This document shows, in pieces, positions 12,280-55,406 of a stretch of 55,407 nt of DNA. The position numbers were made by a program, and so were the translations under genes. This stretch comes from an uncultured virus (IMG/VR IMGVR_UViG_3300013382_000005). Taxonomy: Duplodnaviria; Heunggongvirae; Uroviricota; Caudoviricetes. The notes below the pieces were generated by a model. The model had not been told where the DNA came from, did not search any database, and was given only the letters and a program-made list of their open reading frames with translations. Location of the stretch: the IMG/VR virus record IMGVR_UViG_3300013382_000005; one strand, given 5' to 3'. Each line of letters starts with the position of its first letter. The first letter of the stretch is position 1.

Positions 12280-15200
12280 GACGTTATATTTTCCTCTTTA
12301 TCAGATTCTTCTGTTGTATCTATAACAGAAACAGAAGCTATTGTATCATTGTCGTTAAGCCTTATAAGTCTAACTCCCATAGATACTCTACCTGTAGATC
12401 TGATGCTAGATAATTTAAGTCTGATCATCTTGCCATACTTAGTAGATACAAGAAGTTCGTCATGATTGTCTACAATAGCAGCAGAAACAACCTGACCACT
12501 TTCTTCTGTTATTTTATGAGAGGTTACGCCACGCCCATTTCTTCCTTTACTTGCATATGCATTACAGGAAGTCTGTTTAGCGAAACCATTCTCAGTAATA
12601 GTCAAAAGATACTTCTTGGAATTAGAATCATTAGAAGAAGGCGTAACAATAACTTTTACAACATAATTATTGTCGCTGAGTTTAATGCCCTTAACGCCTC
12701 TACCAGACTTGCCGGTTTCACGAATCTTATCCTGAGTCATACTAAGAGCCTTACCATCAGATGTAACTAGCGTAATATTGCACTCAGTATTTTTATTCTC
12801 AATGACATCTATATCTGCAAGCATATCATTGTCCATAAGTGTAATAACCTTGGTTACATTACCGCGCTTTGGAAGAAGATCAAAAGACATCTTTTTAAGC
12901 ATGCCATTTCTGGTTGCGAACACAAAAGTACTATTCTTAACCTTTGTATCAGCGGCAATAATATTAACAACCTTTTCTCCAGCCTGAACCTCCTATGACT
13001 AAAGTCACAGGGTTCTCATTTTTCATTATATCTATGATAATAATTGAATTGATATATACTTGATATAATTTCTTGAGCTATCCCCGTAGTTCCTACGGTT
13101 CTTATATATGTTAAAATATTAAGAATTGATTATTCTTAATCCTTCATTTAAAATATTAATTGCTGCATTAATATCTCTATCGTGATTTGTTCCACATTGT
13201 GGGCATGTCCATTCTCTAACAGATAAATCTTTTGTTTGAGAATTGATATGTCCACATATGTGGCACTTCTGAGAACTTGGGTAATATTGATCTATTTTAG
13301 ATACAGTTTTTCCATACCATTTTGCTTTATATTCCAATTGTTTAACAAATTCTGACCATGATGCATCAGATATATTTTTGCGTAATCTGCATGCATCATT
13401 TTTGCTTATGTTCTTATTAGATTTTTCAAACATATCCTTTACATTAAGTGTTTCAATGCATATAACATCATATTGTCTAATTAAATTAGTTGATAATTTA
13501 TGCATAAAATCCAAACGCTGATTATGTATATGAAACTGTAAATTTGCAATCCTTTGTCTCAATTTATTATAACGATTGCTATCCCTTGTTTTTCGAGATA
13601 GCTTTTGCTGTAATAAAGCGAGTCTCTCTGAAGAATTACAAAAATACTTACCTGCATCTATTTTTGTCTGATCGCTAAATGTGCAATAACTTTTTATTCC
13701 TAAATCTATGCCAATAGGTTTATTCGTTTTTGGCAACTCTTTAATTACAACGTCCGTGCAACATAAAGATATATAATATTTCCCATTTGGTTTTTGAGAA
13801 ATTGTCGCATTAAGAATTCTACCTTTATGCTTTCTCCCGCCACGAATTTTCAATAAACCAACTTTAGGAACTTGTATATATTTATCTAAAAATTTAATAT
13901 TGCTATTAGTTCTATAACTGTAATTATGAATCTTTTTAGATTTAAATTTTGGAAAACTTGCTCGTCCTTCAAAGCGATTTTTATACGCATTATCTAAATC
14001 TTTTAAAGAGTTTTGCAATGCACATTTGTCTGGTTCTCTTAACCAGTCCAATTCTTGTTTTAGAGATGTTAAATCTGAACAACATTGATAATACGACATC
14101 GTAACATGATTTGTACGATATTCTTCAATTCTCCTATTTAAATAATAGTTGTATACAAACCTAACGCACCCAAATGTCTTTTGTAATAATTCAATTTGCG
14201 TTTTGGTAGGATATACTCTATATTTATAAGAGACGTCCATAGATTTATTATACTCCTTATTTTATTTTTTGATTTTGAATATATTGCCGTATTTGCTCTT
14301 CTGTATTTTTAGAAACAGTAGCAATATAATAACTTGGATTCCACAAATGTTCATCCAATAATTTGTCTTTTAATTGTTCTTTATATTTTTTCATTAACAG
14401 ATGAGCAGATACTCCCTTTAATGCTTTAAGCATATTGGGTATGTATATTTGTGGATTACAATTAACTAGCAAATGAATGTGATCCAAATCGCCATTGCAT
14501 TCTAATATTTCGAATTCATTGTCTTTTGCTATATTATTCAAAATCTCAAATAAATCTTTTTCAATTTGTCCTGATAGAATTCTACGTCTATATTTAACAC
14601 ACCACACTATATGATATTGAATTGAATATACGTAACCTCTACCATAAGTTAATGTCATAATATTTATTACTCCGTAATAATTAGATATAACATATGAAAT
14701 TAAAAAAGTAAAGTATTTTTCTAAATATATTTTAAATTTTATAATAACATATGTAAGAACCATAAGAACTTACATCTTTAGTTTTTTGGAGGTCTCGTTC
14801 ATACAAGATCGCTACTCTTGTACAGTTCTCTTATGAACTTCTTATATTTTCATATAAGCACAGACTATATCTTCTTCTTCGTCATAACACGGTCAGAAGT
14901 CGTCCACTTCGGATACACTTGTATCCTACATAATAGTCGTTGAACCTTCCCCTGTTCAGGGCTTGGCTGCTGATTGCCTCTTTATTTAGTACTTAGGATT
15001 TAACCATATACTATACAATAATTTTTTTTCTGCTTTCGCAACATTCACACTTAAATTTATTTCAATTTTATGTTGTAGTTTTATTGTCTTTAAGGTTTTC
15101 CAGCAATTCAAACGATATAGGAAATTTTATTAAAAATTTCCTCACATACAAATTTCTTTATATGTGGACTATTTATAGTTATTAACTCATGGTTAAAGGC

Positions 15201-17009
15201 CACGAGTATGCATAACTACTTTTAATCAAGCTGCTTAAGATAATTATTAATATGCTTACCTTTAGAAGTCTTGGCTACCTTAGGAATCTGATACCCCTTA
15301 AGAATATGACATCTACCAGTACTGGTAAAGAAAAGAAGATCGTCTTTATTACTCATATAAATAATCTTCTTGATGCTATCATTATCAGCTTCATTTATAT
15401 ACTGATTGATTCCTTTACCATTTCTGGACTGAGTCTTATATTCTTTCTCACTTACAGACTTTATAATATCATTATTAGTATAACTAATAACAATAGGTTC
15501 TTCTGCAATTAGATCTGCTTCGTCCAAAGCGCTATATTCAGATTCTTCTATTATAGTTCTTCTCTGGTCTCCATACTTCTTTTTATATACCAAGAATTTG
15601 TTCTTAATATATTCAAGAAGTTTATTTTGATCATTTAATAACGAATCATATTCTGCCGACTTATTATTTAAAGAAGTCAGATCTTCATTATACTTAGCTA
15701 TATTAGCATGAGATATATTTTTTAATGGCATATCAAGAATATATTTTATCTGATTGTCATTTTCAAATATATTAGTTGCCTTAAGATCTTCAAACTCATT
15801 ATCGCTATTTTGAAGAATATCGATAACAGTATCGATATTTGTAGCCGCAAGTATAATTGCTCTTACTGTATTGATTCGCGCATTAAGCCTTTCATTCTCA
15901 TATGCAATATAATTATATGTTACGTTAACGCCATGAGATAGAAAAGCTGTAAGCATAGTATCAAGATTAACTGTTTCAGGTTTGCCATCGACGAGAACAA
16001 CATTATTTACGCCGATAGAAGTCTGCAATGAAGTCTTACTGAATAACTTATTAAGTAACAGGTCGACATTAGCGTCCTTCTTGACATCAATAACAATTCT
16101 TACGTAGCATTCCTTGGATGACTCATCTCTTATCTCTTTGATTTCTGGCAAAACACCGTTATCTTTAAGAGAATCTATAAATTTAACAAGCTCTGCCTTT
16201 TTAGACTTATAAGGCAAGTCATTAAATATTATCTGTGTTGTGCCATTTTTAAGAGTCTTAGTAGTATAATTTGCTCGTACAATTATACTGCCTCTTCCAG
16301 TCTTAAAATAACTTCTGATACCTGATGTGCCTACAATAGTTCCACCTAATGGAAAATCCGGTCCTTTTATAATTGAGAAAACTTTATTTTCGTCAATATC
16401 TTCTCCATTAATAGTTTGATCTATATAATAGATTAACGCATCGTATACCTCACTTATATTATGAGGCACAAGATTACAAGCCATGCCTACTGCAATACCT
16501 GAAGAGCCATTAATAAGTAGATTAGGAATAAGTCCGCTTAATGTTACTGGTTCTTCTTTTGTATTATCAAAGTTAGGCATAAAATCTACTGCATTCTTAT
16601 CGATATTCTCAAGCATATCGTATCCAATACGAGTAAGTTTTGATTCGGTGTAACGGTAAGCAGCCGGTGGATCATCATCAAGTGGATTTCCATTATTGCC
16701 ATTAAAGTCAATTAACGGATATCTCATTGTGATAGGCTGAGACATAGCTGCTAAAGCATCATAGGTCGATATATCGCCGTGAGGACTGAATGCACCTATA
16801 ACATGACCAACTGTAGTTGCACATTTGTGAAAATTAGCCGATGGGGTCAAATTATTGACCCACATCGAATATAGAATTTTTCTTTGAACTGGTTTAAGAC
16901 CGTCTATAATATTAGGCAATGCTCTATCGGTTATGACTGAAACGGCATAATCGAGAAAAGAATTGCCAACTATATTACTAACGTCTTGTGTTAATATTGT
17001 TTCTGGCAT
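12276..17009 (-). CDS. gyrA: DNA gyrase subunit A, 2 exons (15225-17009, 12276-12983), 830 aa spliced
   Basis: DRALP..DGLKPVQR, PHGD, AAYRYTE, GIAVGMA; beta-pinwheel repeats; junction KQLD|AGEKVV is in frame. Confidence 0.95.
13119..14240 (-). CDS. tnpB: TnpB RNA-guided endonuclease (IS605 family) of the IStron
   Basis: YKYRVYP, FGCVRFVYN, GIDLG, IETL, SSQKCHICG, CPQCG..HDRDINAA; RuvC D/E/D intact. Confidence 0.95.
   Translation of the reverse strand: MDVSYKYRVYPTKTQIELLQKTFGCVRFVYNYYLNRRIEEYRTNHVTMSYYQCCSDLTSLKQELDWLREPDKCALQNSLKDLDNAYKNRFEGRASFPKFKSKKIHNYSYRTNSNIKFLDKYIQVPKVGLLKIRGGRKHKGRILNATISQKPNGKYYISLCCTDVVIKELPKTNKPIGIDLGIKSYCTFSDQTKIDAGKYFCNSSERLALLQQKLSRKTRDSNRYNKLRQRIANLQFHIHNQRLDFMHKLSTNLIRQYDVICIETLNVKDMFEKSNKNISKNDACRLRKNISDASWSEFVKQLEYKAKWYGKTVSKIDQYYPSSQKCHICGHINSQTKDLSVREWTCPQCGTNHDRDINAAINILNEGLRIINS
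14257..14658 (-). CDS. tnpA: Y1 HUH transposase TnpA
   Basis: YHIVWCVKYRR, DHIHLL, LWNPSYY, YIQNQ; ATG at 14658 after GGAG. Confidence 0.93.
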   Translation of the reverse strand: MTLTYGRGYVYSIQYHIVWCVKYRRRILSGQIEKDLFEILNNIAKDNEFEILECNGDLDHIHLLVNCNPQIYIPNMLKALKGVSAHLLMKKYKEQLKDKLLDEHLWNPSYYIATVSKNTEEQIRQYIQNQKIK

Positions 17010-28300: not shown

Positions 28301-31300
28301 TCCGTTACTATTAGGATGATTACAATAGTTTATAAAACTATTCGCTGGTGCAAAAGATAAAATTTTATCTTTTTGCTTATCATAAACAGTTAAATAAAAC
28401 ATATTCCCTATTCTATAATCGTTGTCAACACAATCTTTAATATTTTCCTGTTGAGTACCAACATATAGATTGTTTATATTATTATTAAGAGCGTTATCGT
28501 CTTTGTGATTCACTTGTTCTGTACTGTCAATGTTTTTGATCCACGTATCACATACCATTCTATGAACTGGAATATGTTTTTGCTTTCCGTTTATATAAAC
28601 GTCAACGCAATAATATTGCTTTTCTTTTCCACGAAGAACGTTCTTGACAATTTTTTGTGAAAATTTAGAAAATACTTGACCGTCAGAACTGACATAATAA
28701 TTATGATTGTGCCTATATTGTTTGAATTCTTTTCCGTTATAAATAATAGATTCCATATAATTTCCTCCTAATATGGCGTAATTATATTTTTAATTAGGCA
28801 CGGTATTGTCTCAAATGAGAGTTTCACCGTTAGCAGGATTTATTTCCCACATCGCTTTTTCTTGCGTTCACACTGTTTATGGTCGGCTTAATTTAGGCGG
28901 TTAACCGACCCCAATACTTAGGTTTATTTGTCTCTGGATCAATATATGGTGTCAAGAAACTTCTGCATCCCATACAAGCATATACATTGCCATTACCATT
29001 TTGGTCTACCTTGTCTCTACGCATAATTTTTGCCGAGATATAATCTGGTACCATACGTTTTGCTGTACATTTAGCAGATAATACCGTTAAATACCAAAAT
29101 GGAGAATCTTCAGTTATATTATTTTCATCGAGAACATAAAGAAGCTTAGGAAATGCAGGTGTAACATAATGACCAGATTCATTTTTAAAACCTAATATTC
29201 TTTGTTTCAAAAATTCTTCAATCAATAGTGCAGTTTCATGCTGATATTCTATATTATCATTAAGATACATAAACACAGAAAGAAATGGAGCTTGTCCATT
29301 AGTATTTGTCATGCTATTAACTTGATAGTTAAAAGTTTGTACAGCATCTTCAATTTCTTTCTTAGTATCAATTTCTGCCCATTTGTTTGATGATATTGCA
29401 TCAAATCCGCGATTAATATATTTATCAATATAAATGTTATAACTATCTCTCACAAATGGTGCGAGATCAGATAAATTTATTGATGCTCCACCATATGAAG
29501 AGCTAGTAACTGCTGTTATAATCTGAGTTGCAATAGTAGCAGCCGTAATTAGTCTATGCGGTTTATCTATTTTAACACCATTTATTGCAGTTCCGTTTTG
29601 AAGCATATCTGCGAGATTTATAAGCTCGCAATTGTGAAGTGATTTTTGTGCAAAATAATCCTTATCGTGAAAATGTAATATTCCACATTCGTCTGCTTCA
29701 ACTATATCTTTAGATAATAATAAACGTTTAGTAATATCTGTACTTGTTATCCCAGCAAGATAATCTCTTTGAGTAGTTACAATTCTTGGATTCTTATTAG
29801 AATTTTCTTTATTCCAATAATCCGAAGTACCATCAATTAATTCTTTTATGCTTTGATCTGTGGTATTTGCTTCTCTTATTAACTTATGCAAAAATCTATA
29901 TTCAACATAAGTTTTGGCTATATCTTTATGTTTTGAAGCCATGAGCTTATTTTCTACAATATTCTGAATCTCTTCAACATCGAATTCATCAGCATTCATA
30001 GCTTCAATTGAATCGGCAATCTTTAACGATATACCAGTAGAGTCTTCTTGATTATTATCTGCAAATGCTGCTTGTATAGCATTTATTATCTTTTGTTTAT
30101 CGAATGGAACTTTACGTCCCCGTTATATTTAGCATAAAACTAAATTTACTGCTTCACAGCGTTCCATTTTGTCAAATGACTACTCTGGTTTTCATAACGC
30201 TCCACAGCATTGAGGTGTAACGACACCTATATGATTAAAGTCTTTACAATTTTGTTATTGTAATTTCAGACAGTATACCTTTGCAAATTTAAAGCAGCTT
30301 GATAGTCTCTATCTATAGCAAAACCACACTTTGGACAAACAAAGATTCTATCTTTTAATTTTAAATCTTTATGTATATGACCGCAATTTGAACATGTTTT
30401 GCTACTTGGATAATATCTATCTGCTTGGATAAATTCAATATTATTCCATTCACACTTATATTTANNNNNNNNNNTTCTGACGTATAAATTCACCAAAGCA
30501 TTCATTTTGAATGGATTTACTTAAATGCCGATTTTTCATCATACCTTTAACATTTAAATCTTTCATAACAACACGTGATGGATTCATTTTAATAATTGTA
30601 CTTGTGCATTGATGAATATAATTATTTCTTATATTAGATAAACGAGAATATATCTCCTTCAATCTTTCTATCAACTTTACAGTATTATTGCTTGTTATAT
30701 AGATACGCCCATTTTTATTTTGGCGGAATTTTCTGCTTATACTATGTTGATAATATTTAACGCGTTTTTCTAATTCTTTTATTCTTCTGCTTTTATTTAT
30801 ATTATGGAATATTATTGATTTATCATTATATGCAACAACTGCAAGTTCTTTAACGCCAAGATCAATTCCAACTCTTATATCTTCGTGCGTCTGTATTTGG
30901 TTCTCACACTCGATGCTAAAAGATATAATCCATTTATTATTTATATGCGTTATACGAACATTGCTGAACTTTTGTTTATTTCCAATTGGTAAGTCAAAAT
31001 CTGTTTTATACTTGACTCTTCCTATTAACTGAATTTGAACATCCTTGTTGTCACGAAAATAAAATTTTTCATTACAAACAGGATATGATTCTTTTGAATG
31101 TTTTTTACTTTTAAACTTAGGGAATCCAGATATTTTAGCAAAAAATCTATCATAAGCATTCTGTAAATCTATACATACTCTTTGTAAACTAGTGTTAGAT
31201 ACATTATATAACCACTCATGCTCACCATCATTTTTTAATGGTTTAAGTAGTTTTATCATATCAAATGCTGTTAGATGTTTTTTACCATTATTATATTCTA

Positions 31301-31943
31301 TGATTTGATATTCTAACATCCAATTCCAAATATATCTGCAAGAACTTATGTGTTGATATAATTTCTGCTCCTGATCCTTTGTTGGAAACAAACGAACTTT
31401 ATAGCCTTTAATCATGTTGTTCTCCTTTCTTATTGAAATGGTATATACTAATATATTACCATATAAACACGTTCTTAAGAAAAGAGAATTTTAGTTTTTT
31501 AGACGCTACTCTTTGCTGAGTCATTAAAACTCCTCATACTTTTCGTATGAGCGTAGACTATATCTTCATTTTATCATGTTTTACGAATTATAAAAATGAT
31601 AAAAGATTACCATTTCGATTTAAGGGATTCTCACCCACGCCAATCACTTGCGCCCTACTCCTAAAGATATTGATAAAATATCCAATGGGATAGTCGTTGA
31701 ACCTTATTCTATTCGAATCTTGGCTGCTGATTTGCCATTACAAATACTTAGGATTTAACCATATACCATCTATTTATTTTTTCTACTTTCGTAACCATCA
31801 CATTTAGACTTGTTTCATTCTTATGTTGTGGTATAAATAGCTTTAGGCTGTTCCAGCAATTAGATAATTTTTTTTTACACACACATTGCTGTATGCGGAG
31901 ACTGAACTTAAGGTTAATCTCTTTTAATTACTATGGTTTTCAT
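25382..31943 (-). CDS. nrdD: Class III ribonucleotide reductase, 5 exons (31917-31943, 28904-30119, 27490-28082, 26250-26493, 25382-25470), 722 aa spliced
   Basis: Junctions give [16 protein letters not shown] (ATP cone), GR-F-NQGVV (Phe codon split), SPGG|AISY and RTCG-Y-IG (glycyl radical motif, Tyr codon split); also MGCRS, YITNSYH. Confidence 0.95.
25471..26249 (-). ncRNA. Group I intron nrdD-I4 (779 nt) with HNH ORF in P8
   Basis: P1 GTGGAT/GTCCAC; AATTGCGGGAAA, ACGCAGCAAA, TTCAACGACTA, GTATAGTCT; terminal G. Confidence 0.92.
25543..25956 (-). CDS. Intron-encoded NUMOD4-like/HNH endonuclease
   Basis: [41 protein letters not shown]. Confidence 0.9.
   Translation of the reverse strand: MIKPIIDYKGYFISDDGNVYCNLGQGNRNRNKTIELYKINPRLTRNGYARIYARQNSTNKRKDLYIHRLVAQYFLPNPENKKYVNHKNCVRNDNRAENLEWCTAKENTDYTLQIEHVIRNFDGTYKSNYNFRDFQRC
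26487..27239 (-). CDS. Intron-encoded HNH endonuclease with AP2-like C-terminus
   Basis: [28 protein letters not shown].....EA...R..AE. Confidence 0.9.
   Translation of the reverse strand: MYTCEVCGRESYKKIRMQGYTLCSKHMHQLFNHGEFLDTCPRTQNDLNEFIINGDQTIGYLYDGKTSEKIDEFIIDTEDLSKVKYHKWRFSHSHIVTGLPSQGTQRELSWVILGLDNRIVTNIAVDHINGNPKDNRKCNLRICEQSENVLNKSFMSNNTSGFIGVTYRKDRNRYDPEIRLGSIRCHLGYTESIEEAVYKRLYAEKLLFKDFTNESEHNKKIEFTKSLPEKKKKQLRNIVESKLKAKNLWQ
26494..27489 (-). ncRNA. Group I intron nrdD-I3 (996 nt) with HNH-AP2 ORF
   Basis: P1 GGTGGT/GCCACC; GCTAACGGGG, CCCGTGCCAAG, GTACAGACTA, GAAGATATAGTC; ends TTTG|GCA. Confidence 0.92.
28083..28903 (-). ncRNA. Group I intron nrdD-I2 (821 nt) with HNH ORF
   Basis: P1 GGTCGGT/GCCGACC; GCTAACGGTGAA, ACCGTGCC, GTAACGACTA, AGAGATAGTCT; terminal G. 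Confidence 0.92.
28109..28756 (-). CDS. Intron-encoded HNH homing endonuclease
   Basis: YYVSSDG.V.S, VHRMV...[16 protein letters not shown]. Confidence 0.9.
   Translation of the reverse strand: MESIIYNGKEFKQYRHNHNYYVSSDGQVFSKFSQKIVKNVLRGKEKQYYCVDVYINGKQKHIPVHRMVCDTWIKNIDSTEQVNHKDDNALNNNINNLYVGTQQENIKDCVDNDYRIGNMFYLTVYDKQKDKILSFAPANSFINYCNHPNSNGAINKFFKRKWFKKRYNILEFKKVKNIEHLRGVTTTPDEYKEVGQILSLPEEHCIPEERYEEIV
30120..31916 (-). mobile_element. nrdD-I1: group I intron carrying IS607-type tnpB and omega-RNA, no transposase
   Basis: P1 GAGAT/GTCTC; core AATTGCTGGAA, AATCAGCAGCC, TTCAACGACTA, AAGATATAGTC; tnpB follows the core; ends TATAACGG at the 3' splice site. Contains an N gap. Confidence 0.88.
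30266..31415 (-). CDS. tnpB: TnpB (IS607-type), interrupted by an assembly gap; RuvC-II Glu replaced by Lys
   Basis: GIDLGVK, VVMKDL (usually EDL), [34 protein letters not shown]. Confidence 0.88.
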
Positions 31944-32234
31944 ATGTGTTATATATCTCACTTAACTTTATAAATAGTATTTTTAACCTATTTTTATTAT
32001 TAGGTAAGGAAGATATTACTCATATACGTTTGTCTTATCTGTCTTAATAATGCAAATCATATATTAGTAATATCTTCTATATTGTCATTTTAAACAAATC
32101 TTATTTGTTGTTAAAACAGACAAAATACTATAAATAAAATTATATCTTTTGCACTATTAATTATTTAACTCAGCATCAATCTGCTTAAATTTTAAATCTA
32201 AGCTGCTGAGTTTATGATTATATATTTTATGTTT

Positions 32235-32696
32235 CTANNNNNNNNNNCGTTTTTTGTCACCATTGCTGAAATTTGAATCGTATTTTATTTTATCCTGATC
32301 TAATATTTTTTCAGGAGAAAATAATGATCTATCTACTCTAGGTGAATAAAGTTTCGATCTCTCTTCTTTAACCTGTTTGCAATATGCATCACGAATCTGA
32401 TTAAGTCTTGTAATTGTAAGCTTGATATTACTATCTGCATTACTCATTGCAGAGATATAAGCTAATTCTTCTTTAAGATATCTACGCTTAATAAGCGTAT
32501 CTCTTAATCTTACTACTATTTGAGTAAGTTGTATTGCGTCCAGGCGTTCAAATTCAAGACAATGCTGTAGATCAACAATTGTTTTATCACATTCACTTAG
32601 TTGACTATTACATTCATCTTTATATACATTCAAATCTTTAAGGATTTTAGTCAAGCTATTCACTGTATTAGGTAAGTCAATGAATTTTGAATCCAT
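32235..32696 (-). CDS. Hypothetical coiled-coil protein (3' end in an N gap)
   Basis: LS..DK...DL.H.LE...RR..K...YSPR pattern. Confidence 0.7.
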   Translation of the reverse strand: MDSKFIDLPNTVNSLTKILKDLNVYKDECNSQLSECDKTIVDLQHCLEFERLDAIQLTQIVVRLRDTLIKRRYLKEELAYISAMSNADSNIKLTITRLNQIRDAYCKQVKEERSKLYSPRVDRSLFSPEKILDQDKIKYDSNFSNGDKKXXXX

Positions 32697-32706
32697 ATAT
32701 ATTTCC

Positions 32707-33489
32707 TTACTTTTGTTCTGTGCATGGATGTTCTTCAGGGCAGTATCCTAAATACTTTCCTAAATACTTACATTTTGGCACAAAATAAGTATCTACGATA
32801 TATTTCCATTCGGGAGAATAAGCGCTTAAGGCATTTTCAATATCCGAAAACAAGTTTCGGAATTCCCAGTATGCTCTCTTACATTTTCTCTGATGAGACA
32901 TATCTATAAGGGTTCTTAAATTGATTTTACAAACTACGGTAGTTGTCATACCAAGAGGAAGTATATTTGCCACATCTTCTTTTGGTGCCCCAAGATCTTC
33001 AAGCTGCTGACCTGTTTCTCTTATAATTTTCATAAGAGCTTTATATCTTGCTAAAGCTTCAGGCATACTTGCTATACTATCAGGGATAATATATTCAAAT
33101 CCCTTTTTAGAATAGTCTATATAACGAGTACTAGATTGAAGTCTTGTCGGCAATCCACCTATATGAGTATAAAATTCTCTTACAACTCTTGCAGAATAAC
33201 CTTCAAGAACCATATAAATATCTGGAAATTCTAATGGGCGTCCATGCTGAGATTTAAGGCAGTTCATGCCACGCTTAAAATTCTTTTCTTCATCTTCTGT
33301 ATCTGCGCCATAACAAACACCTGCCATTTCTCCTATTAATCTAATAGGATCTGAGCAGGTGTGATCTGTTTTTATAATGACCTTATTGAACCTTCCACGA
33401 CTAAAGTCGCGAGATTCCTGCTTCATAGACCTTGCAACCTCAGTCTCCACAGGCTTAATTTCCGTAGTTCCTACGGTACTATTTTTCAT
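32707..33489 (-). CDS. thyX: Flavin-dependent thymidylate synthase with IS-derived N-terminal extension
   Basis: AGVCY, H..PLEF, SARV.RE.YTH, QSSTRY, EDVANILP, NLR.L...QR.C.RAYWE.R. The first ~34 aa are encoded by the IS right end. Confidence 0.9.
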   Translation of the reverse strand: MKNSTVGTTEIKPVETEVARSMKQESRDFSRGRFNKVIIKTDHTCSDPIRLIGEMAGVCYGADTEDEEKNFKRGMNCLKSQHGRPLEFPDIYMVLEGYSARVVREFYTHIGGLPTRLQSSTRYIDYSKKGFEYIIPDSIASMPEALARYKALMKIIRETGQQLEDLGAPKEDVANILPLGMTTTVVCKINLRTLIDMSHQRKCKRAYWEFRNLFSDIENALSAYSPEWKYIVDTYFVPKCKYLGKYLGYCPEEHPCTEQK

Positions 33490-34650
33490 AACTGTTTTAT
33501 TCCTTCATTTAAAATATTAATTGCGGCATTAATGTCTCGGTCATGTGTTGTACCGCATTGCGGACAAACCCATTCTCGAACAGATAAATCTTTAGTATTT
33601 GAATTAATATAACCACATACATGACACGTTTGACTTGAAGGAACAAAGCGTCCAATCTTGATATATTGTCGATCATTCCATTCCGCTTTATATGTTAATT
33701 GTTGTGTTAGTTCAAACCATCCACAATCGTATATGGCCTTCGCAAGATTGTGATTCTTCACCATATTGCTAATTGCCAGATCTTCACTAACTATCACTTG
33801 GTTTTCGCTGATAAGCTTATGAGAAATTTTGTGTAGGTAATCAACTCTAGTGTTATGAATCTTTTCGTGGATTTTTGCAACCTTGATCCGTTGTTTGTTG
33901 TAATTGTTGCTACCTTTGATTTTACGAGATAATAGCCTTTGTGCTCTCGCAAGTCTTCCTTCGTACCTCTTTGCTATGCGTTGGTTATTATACTTCTGAC
34001 CGCCTGATGTAATAAGCAAGTCCTTAATGCCAAGGTCAATCCCGATCTTACCATCAGTCGATGGAAGTTTCTTATGTTCAGTCTCGACAAGAACTGATAC
34101 AAAATATTTACCAGATGGTGTCTGTGATACCGTTGCGTTTTTTATCTGACCATAGAACGGTCGACTAAGTTTTGCTTTGATGAGCTTTAATTTCGGAAGT
34201 TGAATCTTATTCTGATCGAACAGAATCTTAATGTTTCCCTTTCCGCTTGTTGCGGTTGTATACGAATTCCTGTGATTGTGCTTACTGCGAAACTTCGGAT
34301 AACCCGAATGAAGTTTGAAGAATCGTTGATAAGCATTGTCCATCGCAAATACTGCATATTCGAGTGTAAATTTATCAACCTCTTTGAGCCATAAATTCTC
34401 ACTTTTTAAGACACGGGTATAATACAAACAATCTAATTTGCTCATCGATTTCTTTTCTGTCTCATATAATTTCTTTCGATAAGCAAGGACCTGGTTATAT
34501 ACGAATCGGCAACAGCCAAACGTTTTCTGAATTAGCTTTTCTTGTTCCTTGTTCGGATATATTCGATACTTATATGCTTTAAGTATTATGTATCACCTGT
34601 TTTTGTTCGTTTACTCATGACTAAAGTCACGATGGTATGCTAGCGTCTTA
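33386..34650 (-). mobile_element. tnpB-only IS200/IS605 (IS1341-like) element inserted 5 nt into thyX
   Basis: Left hairpin CGTGACTTTAGTCATG; right hairpin CGCGACTTTAGTCGTG then GGTTCAA; removal gives ATG AG|T AAG GTC ATT (MSKVII). Confidence 0.9.
33486..34586 (-). CDS. tnpB: TnpB RNA-guided endonuclease; ATA at the expected start
   Basis: Frame extends upstream of the track start to LKAYKYRIYP...FGCCRFVYN after SD AGGTG; GIDLG, SEDL, HDRDINAA intact. Confidence 0.9.
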   Translation of the reverse strand: MLKAYKYRIYPNKEQEKLIQKTFGCCRFVYNQVLAYRKKLYETEKKSMSKLDCLYYTRVLKSENLWLKEVDKFTLEYAVFAMDNAYQRFFKLHSGYPKFRSKHNHRNSYTTATSGKGNIKILFDQNKIQLPKLKLIKAKLSRPFYGQIKNATVSQTPSGKYFVSVLVETEHKKLPSTDGKIGIDLGIKDLLITSGGQKYNNQRIAKRYEGRLARAQRLLSRKIKGSNNYNKQRIKVAKIHEKIHNTRVDYLHKISHKLISENQVIVSEDLAISNMVKNHNLAKAIYDCGWFELTQQLTYKAEWNDRQYIKIGRFVPSSQTCHVCGYINSNTKDLSVREWVCPQCGTTHDRDINAAINILNEGIKQL

Positions 34651-35100
34651 CTCATAGATCTGTACCTCAAGATCTTCGAGCGATGACAGATACTTGATCA
34701 TTAGCGGTTTAACTGTGCCCTCCCAGTCAAGTCCGCCAAGGCCACAACCTATTCTTGGAAATGCTACAGAATGTATACCTACATCTTTATAAGTTTCCAC
34801 AAAATTCTGTAGACCCTTTTCAATATAATCTATAGTAGACTTACTCTTCCAATGTTTCTTAGTAGGGAAGAGAATAATGTCGCGCTCATCACACTTACTG
34901 CCAGGATAATAATAAAGCTTGCCAATATCAATCAAATGATACTGGCAAGCTTTCTTGTATTCTGTAAACATCTTTGGATACCTATTCTTAAAATCGAGCG
35001 CAAGTCCTTTGCCCATAACACCTACCGTATTGACAGGATTAACAATAACCTGAGCATCACTATCAAAGATGTTTTCATTTTTCTTAAATGTAACCATCAT
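34648..35100 (-). CDS. Macrodomain ADP-ribosylhydrolase (DarG-like)
   Basis: IVNPVNTVGVMGKGLA..FK, FPTK.HW, AFPRIGCGLGGL.W. Confidence 0.9.
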   Translation of the reverse strand: MMVTFKKNENIFDSDAQVIVNPVNTVGVMGKGLALDFKNRYPKMFTEYKKACQYHLIDIGKLYYYPGSKCDERDIILFPTKKHWKSKSTIDYIEKGLQNFVETYKDVGIHSVAFPRIGCGLGGLDWEGTVKPLMIKYLSSLEDLEVQIYE

Positions 35101-35119
35101 ATATACTCCTTTCGTTTGA

Positions 35120-35338
35120 TTATTCTATATTTGCAATGTATTTAAGTGAATCAATTGAAAGCTCTTTAGCAGTAAAAAGAATTTGCTGTGTATTATCAAG
35201 CAACTGTTTTACGTTCTCAAGCATATTCGCGTCAATACACTTCTTACACAATTCTATTGAAGTATTGATAGTATCAAAAGAATTGCCTAATGCATTACAA
35301 GTACGTCTTGCTATATTTTGATTCTTCTTAGATACCAT
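35120..35338 (-). CDS. Hypothetical protein
   Basis: 72-aa ORF in the operon. Confidence 0.55.
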   Translation of the reverse strand: MVSKKNQNIARRTCNALGNSFDTINTSIELCKKCIDANMLENVKQLLDNTQQILFTAKELSIDSLKYIANIE

Positions 35339-35516
35339 GTATATTTAATAGTAAATTGGTTATATCGACCATCTGATCTATAAGAATATCGATATAACTA
35401 TATAGATCTTGAATCGTATATTTTTCATCACTGTCTAGCATCATTTCTCGAAGATCCAATAAATGATTTTTCGTTGATTCCAACTTATCATTTATAGCGA
35501 TATAATTCGGAGTCAT
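35328..35516 (-). CDS. Hypothetical protein
   Basis: 62-aa ORF coupled to the dUTPase stop. Confidence 0.55.
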   Translation of the reverse strand: MTPNYIAINDKLESTKNHLLDLREMMLDSDEKYTIQDLYSYIDILIDQMVDITNLLLNIHGI

Positions 35517-35986
35517 TACTTACCAGTACTTCCAAAGCCACCAGTACGAGTCTGATGGCTCTCCTCTCCGATAGGAGCATACTTCATAAGAATGCCCTGT
35601 ACAAGCTTGTCGCCTTCTCTAATAATATATGGCTCCTTGCTATAATTATAAAGGTTGAAACCAATATTTCCATCATTTTTTTCATTATTAGCATAATCGG
35701 CATCTATGATACCAACAGTATTCATAAGCATAATGCCTTTAGAACCAAGAGAGCTACGCGGAAAGATTGCGAGCACTTCATCGAAATTCATAATGGCCTT
35801 CAGATCACTCCAGATCATACAGGACTCTCCCGGCTCAATTCTCACTGTAATAGGAGAAAAGAAATCACATGCTGCCGAAGCCATAGTACTTCTTACAGGC
35901 ATGCTGATATTTGCATCTGGATTCTTTCTATGTTCGTCCTTAACGATCTCAAAACGAGGCTTAATTGTCTGATTAGTTAAAATCAT
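35516..35986 (-). CDS. dut: Trimeric dUTPase
   Basis: SAACD, PRSSLG, GIIDADY, GDKLVQG, RTGGFGSTG; probable start at 35986. Confidence 0.93.
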   Translation of the reverse strand: MILTNQTIKPRFEIVKDEHRKNPDANISMPVRSTMASAACDFFSPITVRIEPGESCMIWSDLKAIMNFDEVLAIFPRSSLGSKGIMLMNTVGIIDADYANNEKNDGNIGFNLYNYSKEPYIIREGDKLVQGILMKYAPIGEESHQTRTGGFGSTGK

Positions 35987-36003
35987 ATTATTCTTCTTTC
36001 TAT

Positions 36004-49384: not shown

Positions 49385-49470
49385 TGGTAGGTCATTCAGG
49401 ATTTGAACCTAAGCTATATCTTATCCGGTGATTATGTTGCAATGCGCTCTACCAACTGAGCTAATGACCT
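49385..49470 (-). ncRNA. tRNA-like RNA with intact acceptor, D and T arms and CCA but no anticodon arm
   Basis: AGGTCAT/ATGACCT-A-CCA, TAGCTCAGTTGGTAGAGC, GGTTCAAATCC; central ~30 nt do not form a stem. Confidence 0.7.
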
Positions 49471-49504
49471 ATATAATCTGGATAATTTCTATCCAGATTT
49501 ATTT

Positions 49505-50134
49505 TTATCTGTTATGCTTTTCTTCTCTCTTATCTTTTCTTTTTCTTGATCTAAGAATAAAGTTCTTATATTGTTTATAAGATCTTATATTTATATACTT
49601 ACAAAGATAGGTATCGAAGCATTTTGCGTCATGGCATAATTCATACTCATTTGCAGAAGCAATGATATAAATTTCTTTATCAGGATTGTATTTTATTGCG
49701 GCTTCAAATAAACCTTCTTTTAAATCTATTATATTATCTATGGATAATCCACTATCAACTGCATCAAACAAAAACCATAATTCTTTAGCATTTGGATTTT
49801 TTCGAACCAATGCACCCATCTGATTGCCTATATTGTATAAATTCATTACAATATTTTCACCTTCAGATGATTGGACAGCAGTTGCTAAGAAATTAAAATC
49901 ACCGTAAAATCCTGCTTTTGATCTAGCATTTTCTCCGCCATCTTTTAGATTATCATAAAATACATATGGTATATTTTCTTTGCTTAATTTATACTGAATC
50001 TGATTGAGTAAAGAAGTTTTACCACAACCATTACATCCAATAAGTATAGTAACACCTGGTTCGAATGTAACAAAACTACGATAATATAAATTACCACATT
50101 CATTAGGGTCTCTATCGATTTTAAAAGTTCTCAT
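49505..50134 (-). CDS. ABC-type ATPase
   Basis: GCNGCGKT, SSEGE, LFDAVDSGLS. Confidence 0.8.
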   Translation of the reverse strand: MRTFKIDRDPNECGNLYYRSFVTFEPGVTILIGCNGCGKTSLLNQIQYKLSKENIPYVFYDNLKDGGENARSKAGFYGDFNFLATAVQSSEGENIVMNLYNIGNQMGALVRKNPNAKELWFLFDAVDSGLSIDNIIDLKEGLFEAAIKYNPDKEIYIIASANEYELCHDAKCFDTYLCKYINIRSYKQYKNFILRSRKRKDKREEKHNR

Positions 50135-50158
50135 ATATTATATTATTTTTTTAAAATA

Positions 50159-50193
50159 AAAATCCCTATATCAAAATATAATATAGGGATTTT
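50159..50193. terminator. Terminator-like hairpin
   Basis: AAAATCCCTATAT...ATATAGGGATTTT. Confidence 0.55.
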
Positions 50194-50441
50194 CTTTGTG
50201 GACAACGATCTTATAGATAGCTTAGACGTTAATCTGTTTACACAAATATATAGCGTCTATTGCATAGCTACGATATTTATTTTATTGCTCTATCGTTAAG
50301 CAAACTTTTTTAAGTTCAGCGTATATAGATTTACTATATACTTTTAAGCTAAGATATATCTTATGCTATCGGCTAGCTGATATTACCCGTAAACATCTTG
50401 AGATTTGCTCAAGACAACTAAAAGCTATGCAATAGAACTAC

Positions 50442-50517
50442 TGGCTCCACCTGCTGGGCTCGAACCAGCGACATCATGATTAACAGTCATGCGCTCTGCC
50501 AACTGAGCTAAGATGGA
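50442..50517 (-). tRNA. tRNA-Asn(GTT)
   Basis: Full cloverleaf, CATGA-CTGTTAA-TCATG, CCA end. Confidence 0.95.
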
Positions 50518-50810
50518 ATAAAAGAATGTTCAGATAGTTCGTTAAGCTATCCCGCTTTATACAAGCTGCTTTTTATTACTAAAAAGATCTTCCCTTGCCT
50601 CTTTACGCTGCCAAACACTTGCAGCTGCTACAGAGAGTGGTACAAACCAAAAGGCGTTCTAAATCCACTCTAAAACTGAATGGGGAATCAGGCACTAAAG
50701 TACCTCAATCTAGTCCTATTTAAGTATAGGGTTTTGATTTTTAAAAAATCAAGACAGTTAAAATTTTCAATTAATTGTTATGTATTAAAGATTGCTGTTA
50801 CTGTCTTAAA

Positions 50811-50902
50811 TGGCGGAAGATGAGGGATTCGAACCCCCGGTCCCAATTAAAGGAAGCATAGTTTTCAAGACTACCTCGTTATAACCACTTCGATAATCTT
50901 CC
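50811..50902 (-). tRNA. tRNA-Ser(TGA)
   Basis: Long variable arm, loop CTTGAAA, GCCA end. Confidence 0.93.
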
Positions 50903-50920
50903 AGATTTTTCAAATGAATA

Positions 50921-50949
50921 TTGACAAGCAATGTCATTTGTGATATAAT
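50921..50949 (+). promoter_or_regulatory. Consensus sigma-A/70 promoter antisense to the tRNA cluster
   Basis: TTGACA-17 nt-TATAAT. Confidence 0.8.
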
Positions 50950-51038
50950 ATATATACTGCAAGTGATTGAAGATCCCCGGACTACACACAAAATATTTTT
51001 ATAAAAATATGTATATTAATTCGGAGGATATTCAATCT

Positions 51039-51134
51039 ATGGAATTAAAAGAATTTATCAATACATTAGCAAGCGTAATTACAATATTTATGTTTGTAGC
51101 CAGTATTTTTGATTCAAATCATTCACGATTTTAA
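51039..51134 (+). CDS. 31-aa hydrophobic peptide, type I toxin-like
   Basis: SD GGAGG; MELKEFINTLASVITIFMFVASIFDSNHSRF; own promoter and terminator. Confidence 0.6.
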   Translation: MELKEFINTLASVITIFMFVASIFDSNHSRF

Positions 51135-51358
51135 CTTTTATTTAATTATTTTTAATATAATAATATAAGAATAAAATCGCTTGCAGTATTCCCTACCTCG
51201 TATTCACAGTACAAGGTGGGGGATTTTATTTTTACAGAAAATAACCAAACTGCTATTTTTAAGTCAAATAGTAACTCAGATTTTACTCTAAACTCTTGAG
51301 AAAGTCGTGCTGCCAAAACACACGGTTTCATTCTAAAGCTCTAAGACTTTAGTGGGCA

Positions 51359-51435
51359 TGGTCCAAATAGTGAGACTCGAACTCACGGCCTCTAGATCCC
51401 AAATCTAGCGTTCTAGCCAACTGAACTATATCTGG
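51359..51435 (-). tRNA. tRNA-Pro(TGG)
   Basis: CTAGA-TTTGGGA-TCTAG; CCA end. Confidence 0.93.
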
Positions 51436-51440
51436 ATATA

Positions 51441-51516
51441 TGGTGAACATGTCGGGAATCGAACCCGAGACATTATGATTAAAAGTCATATCCTCTACCA
51501 ACTGAGCTACATGTTC
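51441..51516 (-). tRNA. tRNA-Lys(TTT)
   Basis: TATGA-CTTTTAA-TCATA; CCA end. Confidence 0.95.
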
Positions 51517-51523
51517 ATTTAGA

Positions 51524-51652
51524 TGGTACTCCTATAGCTAGCTTAATAATTTTAATCCCATATAAAACTATTTTACTTTCAAATCCTATCCAGAGTCGAA
51601 CTGGAGTCTCTGCCGTGAAAGGGCAATGACTTAACCACTTGTCCATAGGAGC
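51524..51652 (-). tRNA. tRNA-Glu(TTC) with displaced 3' acceptor end
   Basis: TTGCC-CTTTCAC-GGCAG anticodon arm; the proper end ATAGGAGTACCA lies 48 nt beyond a first ATAGGA. Confidence 0.75.
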
Positions 51653-51764
51653 ATATATTGTGATTTTGTAAAGTGGCAGACTACGGGCGGTCTGCCAGCG
51701 CTAAATATTATATTCCAAAAGGTTTGCTTATCTAATAGTCTGTGTTTGTAATATTAATAAGCAA

Positions 51765-51840
51765 TGGAGCTTCGCGTCGGACTCTAACCGACAACCTACC
51801 GCTTACAAGGCGGTTGCGCTAACGATTGCGCCAGCGAAGC
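51765..51840 (-). tRNA. tRNA-Thr(TGT)
   Basis: ACCGC-CTTGTAA-GCGGT; variant T loop TTAGAGT; CCA end. Confidence 0.85.
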
Positions 51841-52061
51841 ATATATAGCCATTTCTGGCTATGTTATAAAAGTCCAATCGGTTTGTGCATTGCTAAAAGC
51901 AATTAAGCATGATTGGCTCTGTCCAAATTTTAAATACGGAAACGTCTTAGGCTATCTTTGGTTTTCGGATAGCCATCAGACGAAACCTCAGCTCGATCTA
52001 CACTAGGTCAGACGAGTAAAATAGGAAACTTCAAGCCGTAGGTCTTTGAAGTAATATCCTA

Positions 52062-52137
52062 TGATTGCAGATCGGGGAGTTGAACCCCGGTTGACGGGAT
52101 TATGAGCCCCGCTTGGAAACCAACATCCAGATCTGCA
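52062..52137 (-). tRNA. tRNA-Met(CAT), initiator-like, atypical D arm, ends ATCA
   Basis: CGGGG-CTCATAA-TCCCG; TGCAGAT/ATCTGCA acceptor stem. Confidence 0.75.
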
Positions 52138-52276
52138 ATATTGGGTTATTGTAATTATATATTACTATCACAAAATAATCTATATTATATCTTTAAAGAT
52201 ATAATTAAGAAAAAAATACTCCATAACTCTCCCTAGGAACAAAACTGTTGCACGATGTGCTAGAGCTACGGAGTAT

Positions 52277-52385
52277 CACAAGAAGCAGGATTCGAACCTA
52301 CAACTCAACCCCTTGAATTGATCAGAAACAATGATTGTTTGCGGGCGGCTAAGACCGCCGACTTTGCCAATTCGTCTATTCTTGT
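52277..52385 (-). ncRNA. tRNA-like RNA (Leu-TAG derived?) with 6-nt anticodon loop and a two-hairpin variable region
   Basis: ACAAGAA/TTCTTGT acceptor, GACGAATTGGCAAAGTC D arm, GGCGG-TCTTAG-CCGCC, GTAGGTTCGAATCCTGC T arm. Confidence 0.7.
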
Positions 52386-52388
52386 ATA

Positions 52389-52455
52389 TGCTAGTATCCG
52401 GATTTGAATCGAAAAAATATATCATATTCATTTTCTCAATTAAACTATATTAGCA
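52389..52455 (-). pseudogene. Eroded tRNA remnant
   Basis: GCTAATATAGTTTAATTG...CGATTCAAATCCGG-ATACTAGC: acceptor, D and T remnants only. Confidence 0.4.
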
Positions 52456-52469
52456 AATAATATAATAAC

Positions 52470-53177
52470 TTAGATTGAACTATTATACATATTGTTTTTA
52501 TAATCAGTAGATTTTCTTGATAGTTTGTGTTTATCGCAGCATCTACGCAATGTAGTAACTGAAATATTTAATATTTTAGCAGCCTTTTTAAAATTTCCTG
52601 CACATATATTTAATATTTTGAGTATTTGCTCTTTCGAATATATATCTGTCTTAAGAATAGTACTTTTTGATTGTTCCTTTTTTATTTTTCTTTCATTTGC
52701 TCTTTTTCTTATAGGATAATTAAAATCATTATTATGCCAATACAAACCAGTATTAATACCACAAATAGTATTCTCACTTACATTATATATGTTACCAATT
52801 TGCATATTTGTAAGTTTTGTTGTTTTTAACATAGTTATTATTTCATTCAATTTTTCATTATTTAATTTATCGAAATGACCATTATGATTCCCACCAGCAG
52901 TATTGTTATATCCATTTCGAAATGTATCAAATATGGATATATAATATTGTTCTTTGTTTAACAAATCATTTTGATTACAATGTTCTAATATTTCAAAGCT
53001 AAATGCGTTTAATCCATATTTTCTTATATCTTTATACAAATCCGAATTGTAAGTATAATATGTACTATAATTAATGCGTTTTTTATGGTCTTTCCATCTT
53101 CGTTCAATATTTGTTGACTGTCCAATATATGATTTATTATTAATTTGATTTGTTATTTTATAAATTCCACAAGACAT
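52470..53177 (-). CDS. Free-standing GIY-YIG homing endonuclease in the tRNA cluster
   Basis: GIYKITN..N.KSYIGQS.NIERRW..H, E.YYI, GYN.T.GG; C-terminal HTH-like segment. Confidence 0.9.
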   Translation of the reverse strand: MSCGIYKITNQINNKSYIGQSTNIERRWKDHKKRINYSTYYTYNSDLYKDIRKYGLNAFSFEILEHCNQNDLLNKEQYYISIFDTFRNGYNNTAGGNHNGHFDKLNNEKLNEIITMLKTTKLTNMQIGNIYNVSENTICGINTGLYWHNNDFNYPIRKRANERKIKKEQSKSTILKTDIYSKEQILKILNICAGNFKKAAKILNISVTTLRRCCDKHKLSRKSTDYKNNMYNSSI

Positions 53178-53224
53178 ATAAAAACCAATAATAATCCTTA
53201 ATATTTTAAATTATAATTAATTGA

Positions 53225-53299
53225 TGGCTGGGATGGCCAGATTCGAACTGGCGATTGCAAGAGTCAAAATCTTGTACCTTACCGCTTGGTGACATCCCA
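53225..53299 (-). tRNA. tRNA-Gln(TTG)
   Basis: CAAGA-TTTTGAC-TCTTG; GCCA end. Confidence 0.95.
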
Positions 53300-55102: not shown

Positions 55103-55406
55103 GTCAGCTGCTCACGATTAAAATCACGAGCTTGTAACTAAAGTATTTTTATTCTACAAAAATTGCAGAATCGAAGTTCAAACGAAATTAAATTCTCCTT
55201 CGTTTCTGCTACATCGTCGGGTGACTGACTGCACCCGTTTCTTACCTAGAATATATCCAAGTAATGTTATTTCTTAATACAAATCTATATTTTTCTCTTA
55301 AATTAGTGTCTTAAATTCTTACATTCAACGGTTCTCTAATTTAAAAATAGATTTATATTTTAAATATTTCATCTCATCATTAAAATAACAAGTATCCATA
55401 TTTTAT
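55103..55406 (-). mobile_element. ORF-less IS200/IS605-like element, copy 2
   Basis: Colinear near-duplicate of 22571-22883 with different flanks. Confidence 0.75.

Follow-up and report, generated by a model that had tools for sequence, protein, structure and literature searches.

The DNA analysed here (hereafter the window) is a stretch of 55,407 nucleotides (nt) from an uncultured virus of the Caudoviricetes, IMG/VR record IMGVR_UViG_3300013382_000005, and all coordinates refer to it. At the locus of interest the genes all lie on the minus strand, in the order dUTPase, two small open reading frames (ORFs), a macrodomain gene, tnpB and thyX. The tnpB gene is carried by E1, a TnpB-only element of the IS200/IS605 type, which is inserted between nucleotides 5 and 6 of thyX. 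The native start codon of thyX is left stranded on the far side of the element, and a new frame opens at the end of tnpB, runs through the right end of E1 and joins thyX in phase. We think that E1 is probably a non-autonomous TnpB element whose right end supplies the thyX start, without splicing. The phage genome is presumably large: a 235-kb metagenome contig is identical to the window at the E1 locus, and the window carries tRNAs and many co-oriented genes.

E1 has the make-up of a TnpB-only IS200/IS605 element (Table 1). Its protein matches HTH_OrfB_IS605 (PF12323, expectation value (E) 5.7e-21), the OrfB_IS605 RuvC domain (PF01385, E 4.6e-25) and the C-terminal zinc-finger domain TNB (PF07282, E 2.7e-24), and subterminal hairpins stand at both ends. 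These hairpins are 88% alike, and their motif has six matches in the window against 0.16 expected. GC content is 37% for E1 against 32% in the window, and no terminator-like site was found on the gene strand within the element. The right end reads ...GGTTCAA, with 33386 as its last base, and is flanked by TAAGGTC from 33385 onwards (TAAGGTCATTATAAAA); GTTCA followed by A, C or G also terminates the right ends of dozens of relatives. Because TAAG stands at both junctions, either by coincidence or as a 4-nt repeat, the boundary can be moved by up to 4 nt. An earlier note on this DNA had placed the element at 33381..34655, which the junction sequence corrects to 33386..34650. The first bases of E1 are TAAG (34650-34647), and their TAA is the stop codon of the macrodomain gene. 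This gene does keep its stop at the left end, as the same note had proposed, and the TAA can be assigned either to the target or to E1. A DUF7788/DUF2828 gene (53542-55047) is preceded by another hairpin that is similar to the IS ends (CGTGATTTTAATCGTG, 55113-55128, minus strand), either the remnant of an element end or an unrelated structure.

Table 1. Coordinates of the features discussed (E, expectation value; pLDDT, predicted local distance difference test)
Feature	Position	Strand	Basis or remark
E1, TnpB-only IS200/IS605-type element, 1265 nt	33386..34650	-	Domains, end hairpins, junction sequence
tnpB of E1	33486..34586	-	Homology from ATA to TGA; RuvC and zinc-finger domains present
Omega-RNA scaffold (3' part) and right end	33386..33500	-	RNAalifold, 21 sequences, per-pair counts
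Left-end subterminal hairpin, CGTGACTTTAGTCATG	34616..34632	-	
Right-end subterminal hairpin, CGCGACTTTAGTCGTG	33396..33412	-	Also in the RNAalifold consensus
Leader frame, 35 codons, ATG overlapping tnpB stop	33385..33489	-	ORF; frame analysis
thyX, third base of codon 2 to stop	32707..33385	-	PF02511; alignment; AlphaFold pLDDT 94-96 from residue ~41
Stranded native thyX start: GAGGT (34668-34664), 8 nt, ATGAG (34655-34651); ATG 34655-34653	34651..34668	-	
Macrodomain gene, upstream of E1; stop TAA 34650-34648	34648..35100	-	ORF; Pfam PF01661, E 7.1e-23
E2, complete IStron in a gyrA-like gene (LKQLD/AGEKVV)	12984-15224	-	RF00028, 75.3 bits; Y1 tnpA; tnpB
E2 intron	14841-15169	-	
E2 tnpA	14257-14763	-	PF01797, E 1.6e-39
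E2 tnpB	13119-14240	-	
E3, second IStron, after codon 9 of nrdD	30120-31916	-	RF00028, 56.5 bits; tnpB
E3 intron	31533-31902		Missed by the whole-window scan at the gathering threshold
E3 RAGATH-18 RNA	30146-30208		
Cluster of eight tRNAs	49388-53299	-	
DUF3800-I RNA	50152-50278	-	RF02969, 59.1 bits

The gene behind E1 appears to encode a complete member of the ThyX family. The PF02511 match covers profile positions 6-190 of 191, and the protein retains the residue of every one of the 68 columns that are invariant in an 18-sequence alignment. ThyX homologues obtained from a protein search are 219-242 amino acids (aa) long, and all 17 that were aligned start in the same column as the proposed native methionine, where they read MSE, MSN or MGK. 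The closest one (P0001, 89% identity, 226 aa) has the N-terminus MSEVIIKTDRTC (MSEVIIK) and the second (P0002, 75% identity) has MSNVIINKNRTC (MSNVIIN). The stranded ATGAG followed by T-AAG-GTC reads MSKV, and the homologues support MSKVIIK as the native N-terminus. The view that E1 splits ATG AG/T AAG GTC (the slash marks the junction) thereby holds. The native ATG itself now opens a frame of 14 codons only, which closes inside the left end of E1. In the AlphaFold model the leader of about 33 residues that precedes the native part has a pLDDT of 51-56, the core is confident from about residue 41, and the first strand consists of residues 36-39 (KVII), directly past the junction. A search of the PDB by sequence for a solved ThyX structure gave no matches at E<=1e-5.

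Two further observations concern thyX. Near its 3' end (about 32730-32760, minus strand) there is an in-frame tandem duplication of 12 nt, which gives KYLGKYLG in the ThyX of the window against a single four-residue segment in the 17 homologues (KYLG in the closest). Moreover, in another phage (L005, positions 1-700) a tnpB gene 55% identical to that of E1 lies directly upstream of a thyX gene that is likewise 55% identical. Here the right end halts 15 nt before the Shine-Dalgarno (SD) sequence and ATG of thyX itself, and the arrangement looks like an independent association of TnpB with a thyX start.

The reading frame across the right end

The TGA of tnpB (33488-33486) is overlapped by an ATG (33489-33487) in the form ATGA, and an SD-like GAAGGA lies 11 nt upstream of this ATG, at 33506-33501. 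A single 260-aa ORF (32707..33489, N-terminus MKNSTVGTTEIKPVETEVARSMKQESRDFSRGRFNKVIIK) spans the right end and continues into ThyX, and the Pfam Thy1 match (PF02511, E 4.3e-33) begins at residue 44 of the fusion, from profile position 6. Both the overlapping ATG with a purine-rich motif upstream and the stop-free, in-frame reading into thyX had been reported in the earlier note, and both are present. The last leader codon, AAT, is composed of two E1 bases and one thyX base, and the frame joins thyX at codon 3. The predicted fusion product consequently has 33 extra N-terminal residues, with F-N replacing the native M-S. Of the three possible frames through the right end, this one alone is open. 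A further ATG is found in frame at codon 22 of the leader; it is not kept in two related elements described below (L006 and L008). Translation of thyX would begin either at the leader ATG or at another in-frame start within the leader. A frameshift fusion between TnpB and the leader was ruled out, as the -1 frame has a TAA just upstream of the ATG.

The tnpB gene of E1 has itself decayed. An ATA (34586-34584) aligns with the ATG or GTG starts of relatives, an in-frame TGA (34595-34593) precedes the region of homology, and no ATG, GTG or TTG occurs before 34445. The SD sequence is weakened (ACAGGTGAT against GGAGGTGAT), and a promoter-like segment of about 100 nt with TTGACA...TATAAT, present in the relatives, is missing. 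E1 thus falls short of the start codon, SD sequence and promoter of an expressible tnpB.

The structure of the right end has been kept. Three scaffold helices are conserved among 21 relatives, and E1 retains all of them according to RNAalifold. Compensatory pairs (CG/GC, UA/CG and AU/GC) are seen in the two hairpin helices, and the long-range stem in the middle hardly varies. No Rfam family matched the scaffold. Judged by its predicted structure, the region from the 3' end of tnpB to the right end is consistent with an omega-RNA scaffold. As E1 keeps the helices and the frame is open, the same bases would constitute transposon end, guide-RNA scaffold and open frame. Of the triple use of about 100 nt that was proposed earlier, the overlay of conserved helices on the open frame is found as described. 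The guide-scaffold role, however, may be extinct in this copy, because tnpB has neither a start codon nor the promoter-like segment, and nuclease and guide functions may both be gone.

No sign of splicing was found in E1. A scan with Rfam across 32000-36000 gave no matches at E<=1 and hence no group I intron in the element, which rules out an intron as a part of E1. Between the left boundary and tnpB there are only about 65 nt, too few for a ribozyme core. This agrees with the suggestion that the arrangement is free of splicing, and the two nearby elements E2 and E3 do have group I introns. They are IStrons, in which a group I intron is combined with an IS605 or IS607 element as in CdISt1 (Tourasse 2014, PMC4227781; Zedaveinyte 2023, 10.1101/2023.11.20.567912). 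E2 has the flanks CTTGAT/TAA... and ...TTCAG/GCT, so it has the target TTGAT (against ATGAG for E1), begins with TAA and ends with TCAG; a TTGAT target and a TCAG 3' end are described for group A IStrons (PMC4227781). One and the same phage thus holds both the splicing solution (E2 and E3) and the intron-less E1. Two runs of N at about 32237-32247 and 30464-30473 represent assembly gaps or masked bases, and one of them interrupts the tnpB of E3.

Related elements and empty sites

The lineage considered here consists of E1 and the elements L006, L007, L008, L009 and L029, which sit in other phages. TnpB identity to E1 is 81% for L006, 80% for L007, 78% for L008 and 66% for L009, all four found in viral contigs. 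A metagenome scan added L029 (75%) as well as L028, which is the window's own phage. Among INPHARED phages the TnpB matches were partial only, the best showing 64% identity over 76% of the query.

All six members have an ATG close ahead of the tnpB stop, at a distance of 1 or 7 nt, and relative to the conserved scaffold it falls in one and the same frame. Whether related elements keep the frame open had been put forward as a check on the original observation, and the five closest relatives (66-81% TnpB identity) all have the ATG and an open right end. The leader frame continues into the downstream gene in E1 (260 aa, into thyX), L006 (239 aa) and L007 (342 aa). In L029 (107 aa) it is in phase with the next gene and passes through that gene's own start codon, in L008 (44 aa) it ends 4 nt ahead of the next ATG, and in L009 (33 aa) its stop overlaps the next ATG (ATGA). 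The L008 leader contains a 21-nt in-frame insertion, and from our reading of the sequences L029 is frame-shifted midway relative to E1 and yet open. Since the leader peptides, in addition, are conserved no further than the nucleotides dictate, the comparison points to selection on openness and not on a particular peptide.

For two of the relatives the empty site can be compared with the occupied one. The sister phages of L007 (L017 and L018) have ...CTCGAA TAA, an intergenic stretch, the SD sequence GAGGTGAT and ATGAG/TAAAACATA... (TAAAACA; MSKTYPE), and the occupied allele reads ...GTTCAA/TAAAACATA. The empty site of L006 (L025 and L026) has AAGGAG, 9 nt and ATGGC/AACGAAA (MATKKV), and the occupied allele reads ...GTCCAC/AACGAAA. 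Three sister phages differ in the site that the element occupies. Both junctions lie in codon 2, like that of E1, and the native SD sequence and ATG are absent from both occupied alleles (38 nt in L007, 27 nt in L006). The downstream genes are intact in comparison to the empty-site alleles, at full length and with 97% identity for L007 (a match to a tail-fibre family) and 91-92% for L006. Because the native SD sequence and ATG are deleted, the ATG of the element would be the only nearby start for these two genes. A comparison with empty-site alleles had also been called for in the earlier note, and its outcome is that L006 and L007 have lost their native starts and are fused at codon 2 instead.

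At the left junctions the picture is more varied. L008 is a simple-looking insertion after ...CATGAG, nine bases before the stop of the upstream gene. In L006 and L007 (both at 1820-1850) the end of the upstream gene, the SD sequence and the ATG are missing from the target (27-38 nt), and the left ends start with GTATAG; the left end of L008, ACATAA, differs from this by transitions only. The missing bases were lost either after insertion or during it. GTATAG and GAAAT were also considered as target motif of L006 and L007 and ruled out, as the sister phages are without those bases at the site. ATGAG precedes the insertion point of E1 and is also seen at the empty site of L007 and in the left flank of L008, which amounts to three of the four readable cases; L006, with ATGGC, is the exception. 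Of the 67 ATGAG sites on the gene strand of the window, only seven coincide with a first start codon, and these include the internal tnpB ATG at 34445.

An empty site for E1 itself was not found. Three assemblies of this phage are identical at the locus (G001 and L028 at 100% identity), and the exact 22-nt pattern expected for an empty thyX site has no matches in viral contigs. The thyX relatives in those contigs are only 55-59% identical, and P0001 was found as a protein only.

In a set of 21 non-duplicate phage-borne elements with the 5' motif of the scaffold, an ATG-initiated right-end frame occurs in three lineage members only, and none of the other 18 phage-borne TnpB right ends has such a frame across the end. 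A gut clade with about 65% TnpB identity uses the target TTGAAAT. From these 18 right ends, together with the gut clade and the wider scaffold-sharing family (counts are given in the next section), start and open right-end frame appear to be specific to the lineage and not general. Fusion through the right end as a general property of the wider family is unsupported (3 of 25 loci).

Two side observations were made on the wider TnpB family. An SD-like GGAGG or GAGAGG is present in its right ends, some 5 nt short of the boundary, and one element (L227) is located between the SD sequence and the ATG of a gene, TTGAT/...GGGAGGTTCAC/GAGTATG. A TnpB right end may also replace ribosome-binding sites. 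Besides, a viral contig of 244 kb (G002; L259-L265) contains seven tnpB genes that are 37-44% identical to that of E1, with stop-to-stop frames of 400-455 aa against a match of 364 aa.

Explanations for the fused frame

We propose that E1 inserted right after ATGAG, at codon 2 of thyX, in a large phage. It belongs to a small phage-borne lineage in which three features of the right end are linked. A start codon lies at the tnpB stop or overlaps it, a frame free of stops passes through scaffold and terminal hairpin, and the last base that this frame reads within the element is the second of a codon, which matches the phase of the target ATG AG/. An insertion at a start codon would then yield a whole protein with a leader of 33 residues in which residues 1-2 are replaced, whereas the upstream gene would be terminated by the left-end stop codon. 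The leader would be translated, the fusion active and the arrangement under selection, with ThyX made from the E1 ATG or another leader start on read-through transcripts, and splicing would not be needed. Now that the promoter segment and the start codon of tnpB are gone, the right end probably serves mainly as the 5' coding leader of thyX.

Several findings weigh against this proposal. The frame required for fusion is expected to be open by chance in 8.3% of cases (20000 dinucleotide shuffles, 34 codons), and therefore the E1 copy by itself is not decisive and the argument depends on the comparison with relatives. Because of their common descent, the six lineage members do not count as six independent observations of a conserved frame, and the left junctions of L006 and L007 (CTCGAA/GTATAG and GGGAAAT/GTATAG) are unlike a simple insertion. 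At the leader ATG the spacer of 11 nt exceeds the 5-8 nt seen at neighbouring genes, GAAGGA consists of conserved Glu-Gly codons of TnpB, and coupling to tnpB translation cannot be assumed for a tnpB without a start codon. The gut clade also has one frame open from +9 to the right end; an ATG in that frame is found in 5 of its 49 non-duplicate loci, none of which continues more than 126 nt past the end. Of 25 loci in the wider scaffold-sharing family, 22 show a frame that is partly open and includes an internal ATG, and only 3 continue at least 150 nt beyond the end, which is about chance. Finally, as all three assemblies are identical at the locus, nothing dates the insertion of E1, and thyX may be dispensable.

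These findings could be accommodated by chance and tolerance: E1 would have inactivated or crippled a dispensable thyX, and the ATG and open frame would be by-products of the guide-RNA sequence and of the ATGA overlap. The 8.3% chance expectation for the single copy, the lack of an excess of in-frame fusions in the wider family, the mostly open frame of the gut clade, the origin of the SD-like motif in tnpB coding sequence and the undated insertion all speak for it. We nevertheless regard it as unlikely, for all invariant columns of thyX are kept while E1 itself has decayed, and in L006 and L007 intact genes, one of them tail-fibre-like, are left with the element ATG as their only start. In addition, the start codons of the lineage vary in position but use a single frame, the 21-nt insertion of L008 keeps that frame, and none of the 18 other phage TnpB ends has one. 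Another idea is that the leader mainly serves the element: ribosomes that cross the scaffold would regulate guide-RNA folding or TnpB binding, or be delivered for coupling, and the fusion to thyX would be incidental. The frames of L008 and L009, which end at the next gene's start without fusion, fit that idea, and IStron transcripts are reported to strike a balance between maturing into guide RNA and restoring the transcript of the host gene (10.1101/2023.11.20.567912). However, the frame of E1 is intact although its tnpB is probably unexpressed, and in three of the six members (E1, L006 and L007) the downstream gene is left without another plausible start, which makes this explanation highly improbable.

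Restoration might also take place at the level of DNA or RNA. In the former case the Y1 transposase of E2 (PF01797) would excise E1 from some of the replicating genomes, thereby recreate an intact thyX and make the fusion irrelevant. E1 does keep its hairpins and left flank, and the right-end hairpin of E2 (12994-13009) resembles those of E1. Yet none of the three assemblies of this phage contains an empty-site allele, the different targets (TTGAT for E2, ATGAG for E1) make cross-recognition uncertain, and L006 and L007 would remain unexplained, since they have lost the native start and removal of the element could not bring the gene back. We therefore consider excision quite improbable. Removal from the RNA, by a cryptic intron or by the group I introns of the same genome acting in trans, is suggested by the two IStrons of the window and by the TAA at the left end of E1, which IStrons share (PMC4227781). 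The Rfam null result and the short left part, which cannot house a ribozyme core, make it hardly credible. On balance, a right end of E1 that provides the start of thyX by translation is what we take to be probable.

A more far-reaching idea is that the lineage has evolved into a translationally transparent start-codon cassette, which would home onto gene starts in gene-dense phage genomes and replace them. Its parts would be the ATG-containing target ATGAG, a left end with a stop codon at its very start, and a right end with an ATG and phase-matched frame. At present we offer this tentatively, as a possibility that is rather doubtful. If true, a host gene whose stranded native SD sequence and ATG have disappeared, which is the case in L006 and L007, would depend on the translation start of the element, and loss of the element would kill it. 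Fixation could then follow an addiction-like route, as a translational counterpart of IStron splicing in the same genomes.

Comparison with known systems

The paradigms for TnpB-only (IS1341-type) elements of the IS200/IS605 family are IS608 and ISDra2. E1 shares with the IS1341 type the helix-turn-helix, RuvC and zinc-finger domains of TnpB, the subterminal hairpins at both ends, and a structured guide-RNA region from the 3' end of tnpB to the right end; insertion 3' of a short motif with no clear target duplication may be a further point in common. It also has no transposase of its own, and mobilisation in trans is expected. Unlike the IS608/ISDra2 type, its target ATGAG contains a start codon (instead of TTGAT or TTAC), its right end has an ATG with a target-phased, stop-free frame, its left end begins with a stop codon, and the promoter segment and start of tnpB are lost.

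IStrons are described as limiting the harm of insertion by splicing (PMC4227781; 10.1101/2023.11.20.567912). They also begin with stop codons (PMC4227781), so that the left-end stop has already been described. E1 is like them in that it lies within a protein-coding gene and in the same orientation, has a stop codon as its first bases, would neutralise the harm to its host gene and has right-end RNA with two competing uses. In contrast to IStrons, E1 has no intron; the proposed rescue is translational, by a new start and a leader peptide, and the product would be extended at its N-terminus, so that the original protein is not exactly recovered.

A second parallel is the homing endonuclease gene mobE, which splits nrdA of phage Aeh1 and where element-derived tails rescue the protein (Crona et al. 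2010, PMC3045599). Both cases involve a mobile element in a phage gene of nucleotide metabolism, and sequence born from the insertion becomes a translated tail. In both, function is kept without RNA or protein splicing, although for E1 this is proposed from sequence. The Aeh1 nrdA product consists of two polypeptides that reassemble, whereas E1 replaces no more than the start codon of thyX and a single polypeptide would be made. The type of element differs as well, and the Aeh1 tails are essential by experiment while the E1 leader is known from its sequence. Going by titles and the openings of abstracts, with subscription journals mostly uncovered, we found no literature on start codons in TnpB right ends.

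Mobile elements in compact phage genomes must spare their carrier, and the known ways to do so are inteins, introns that splice themselves, and homing endonucleases that split a gene. If our proposal is true, RNA-guided TnpB transposons would have a purely translational solution, in which about 100 nt act as end, scaffold and leader, and this would help to explain TnpB elements that are found on start codons. With two IStrons and one intron-less element, a single phage offers a natural three-way comparison. The finding also bears on the fixation and domestication of TnpB and on genome annotation, as genes of this kind are easily called truncated or mis-started.

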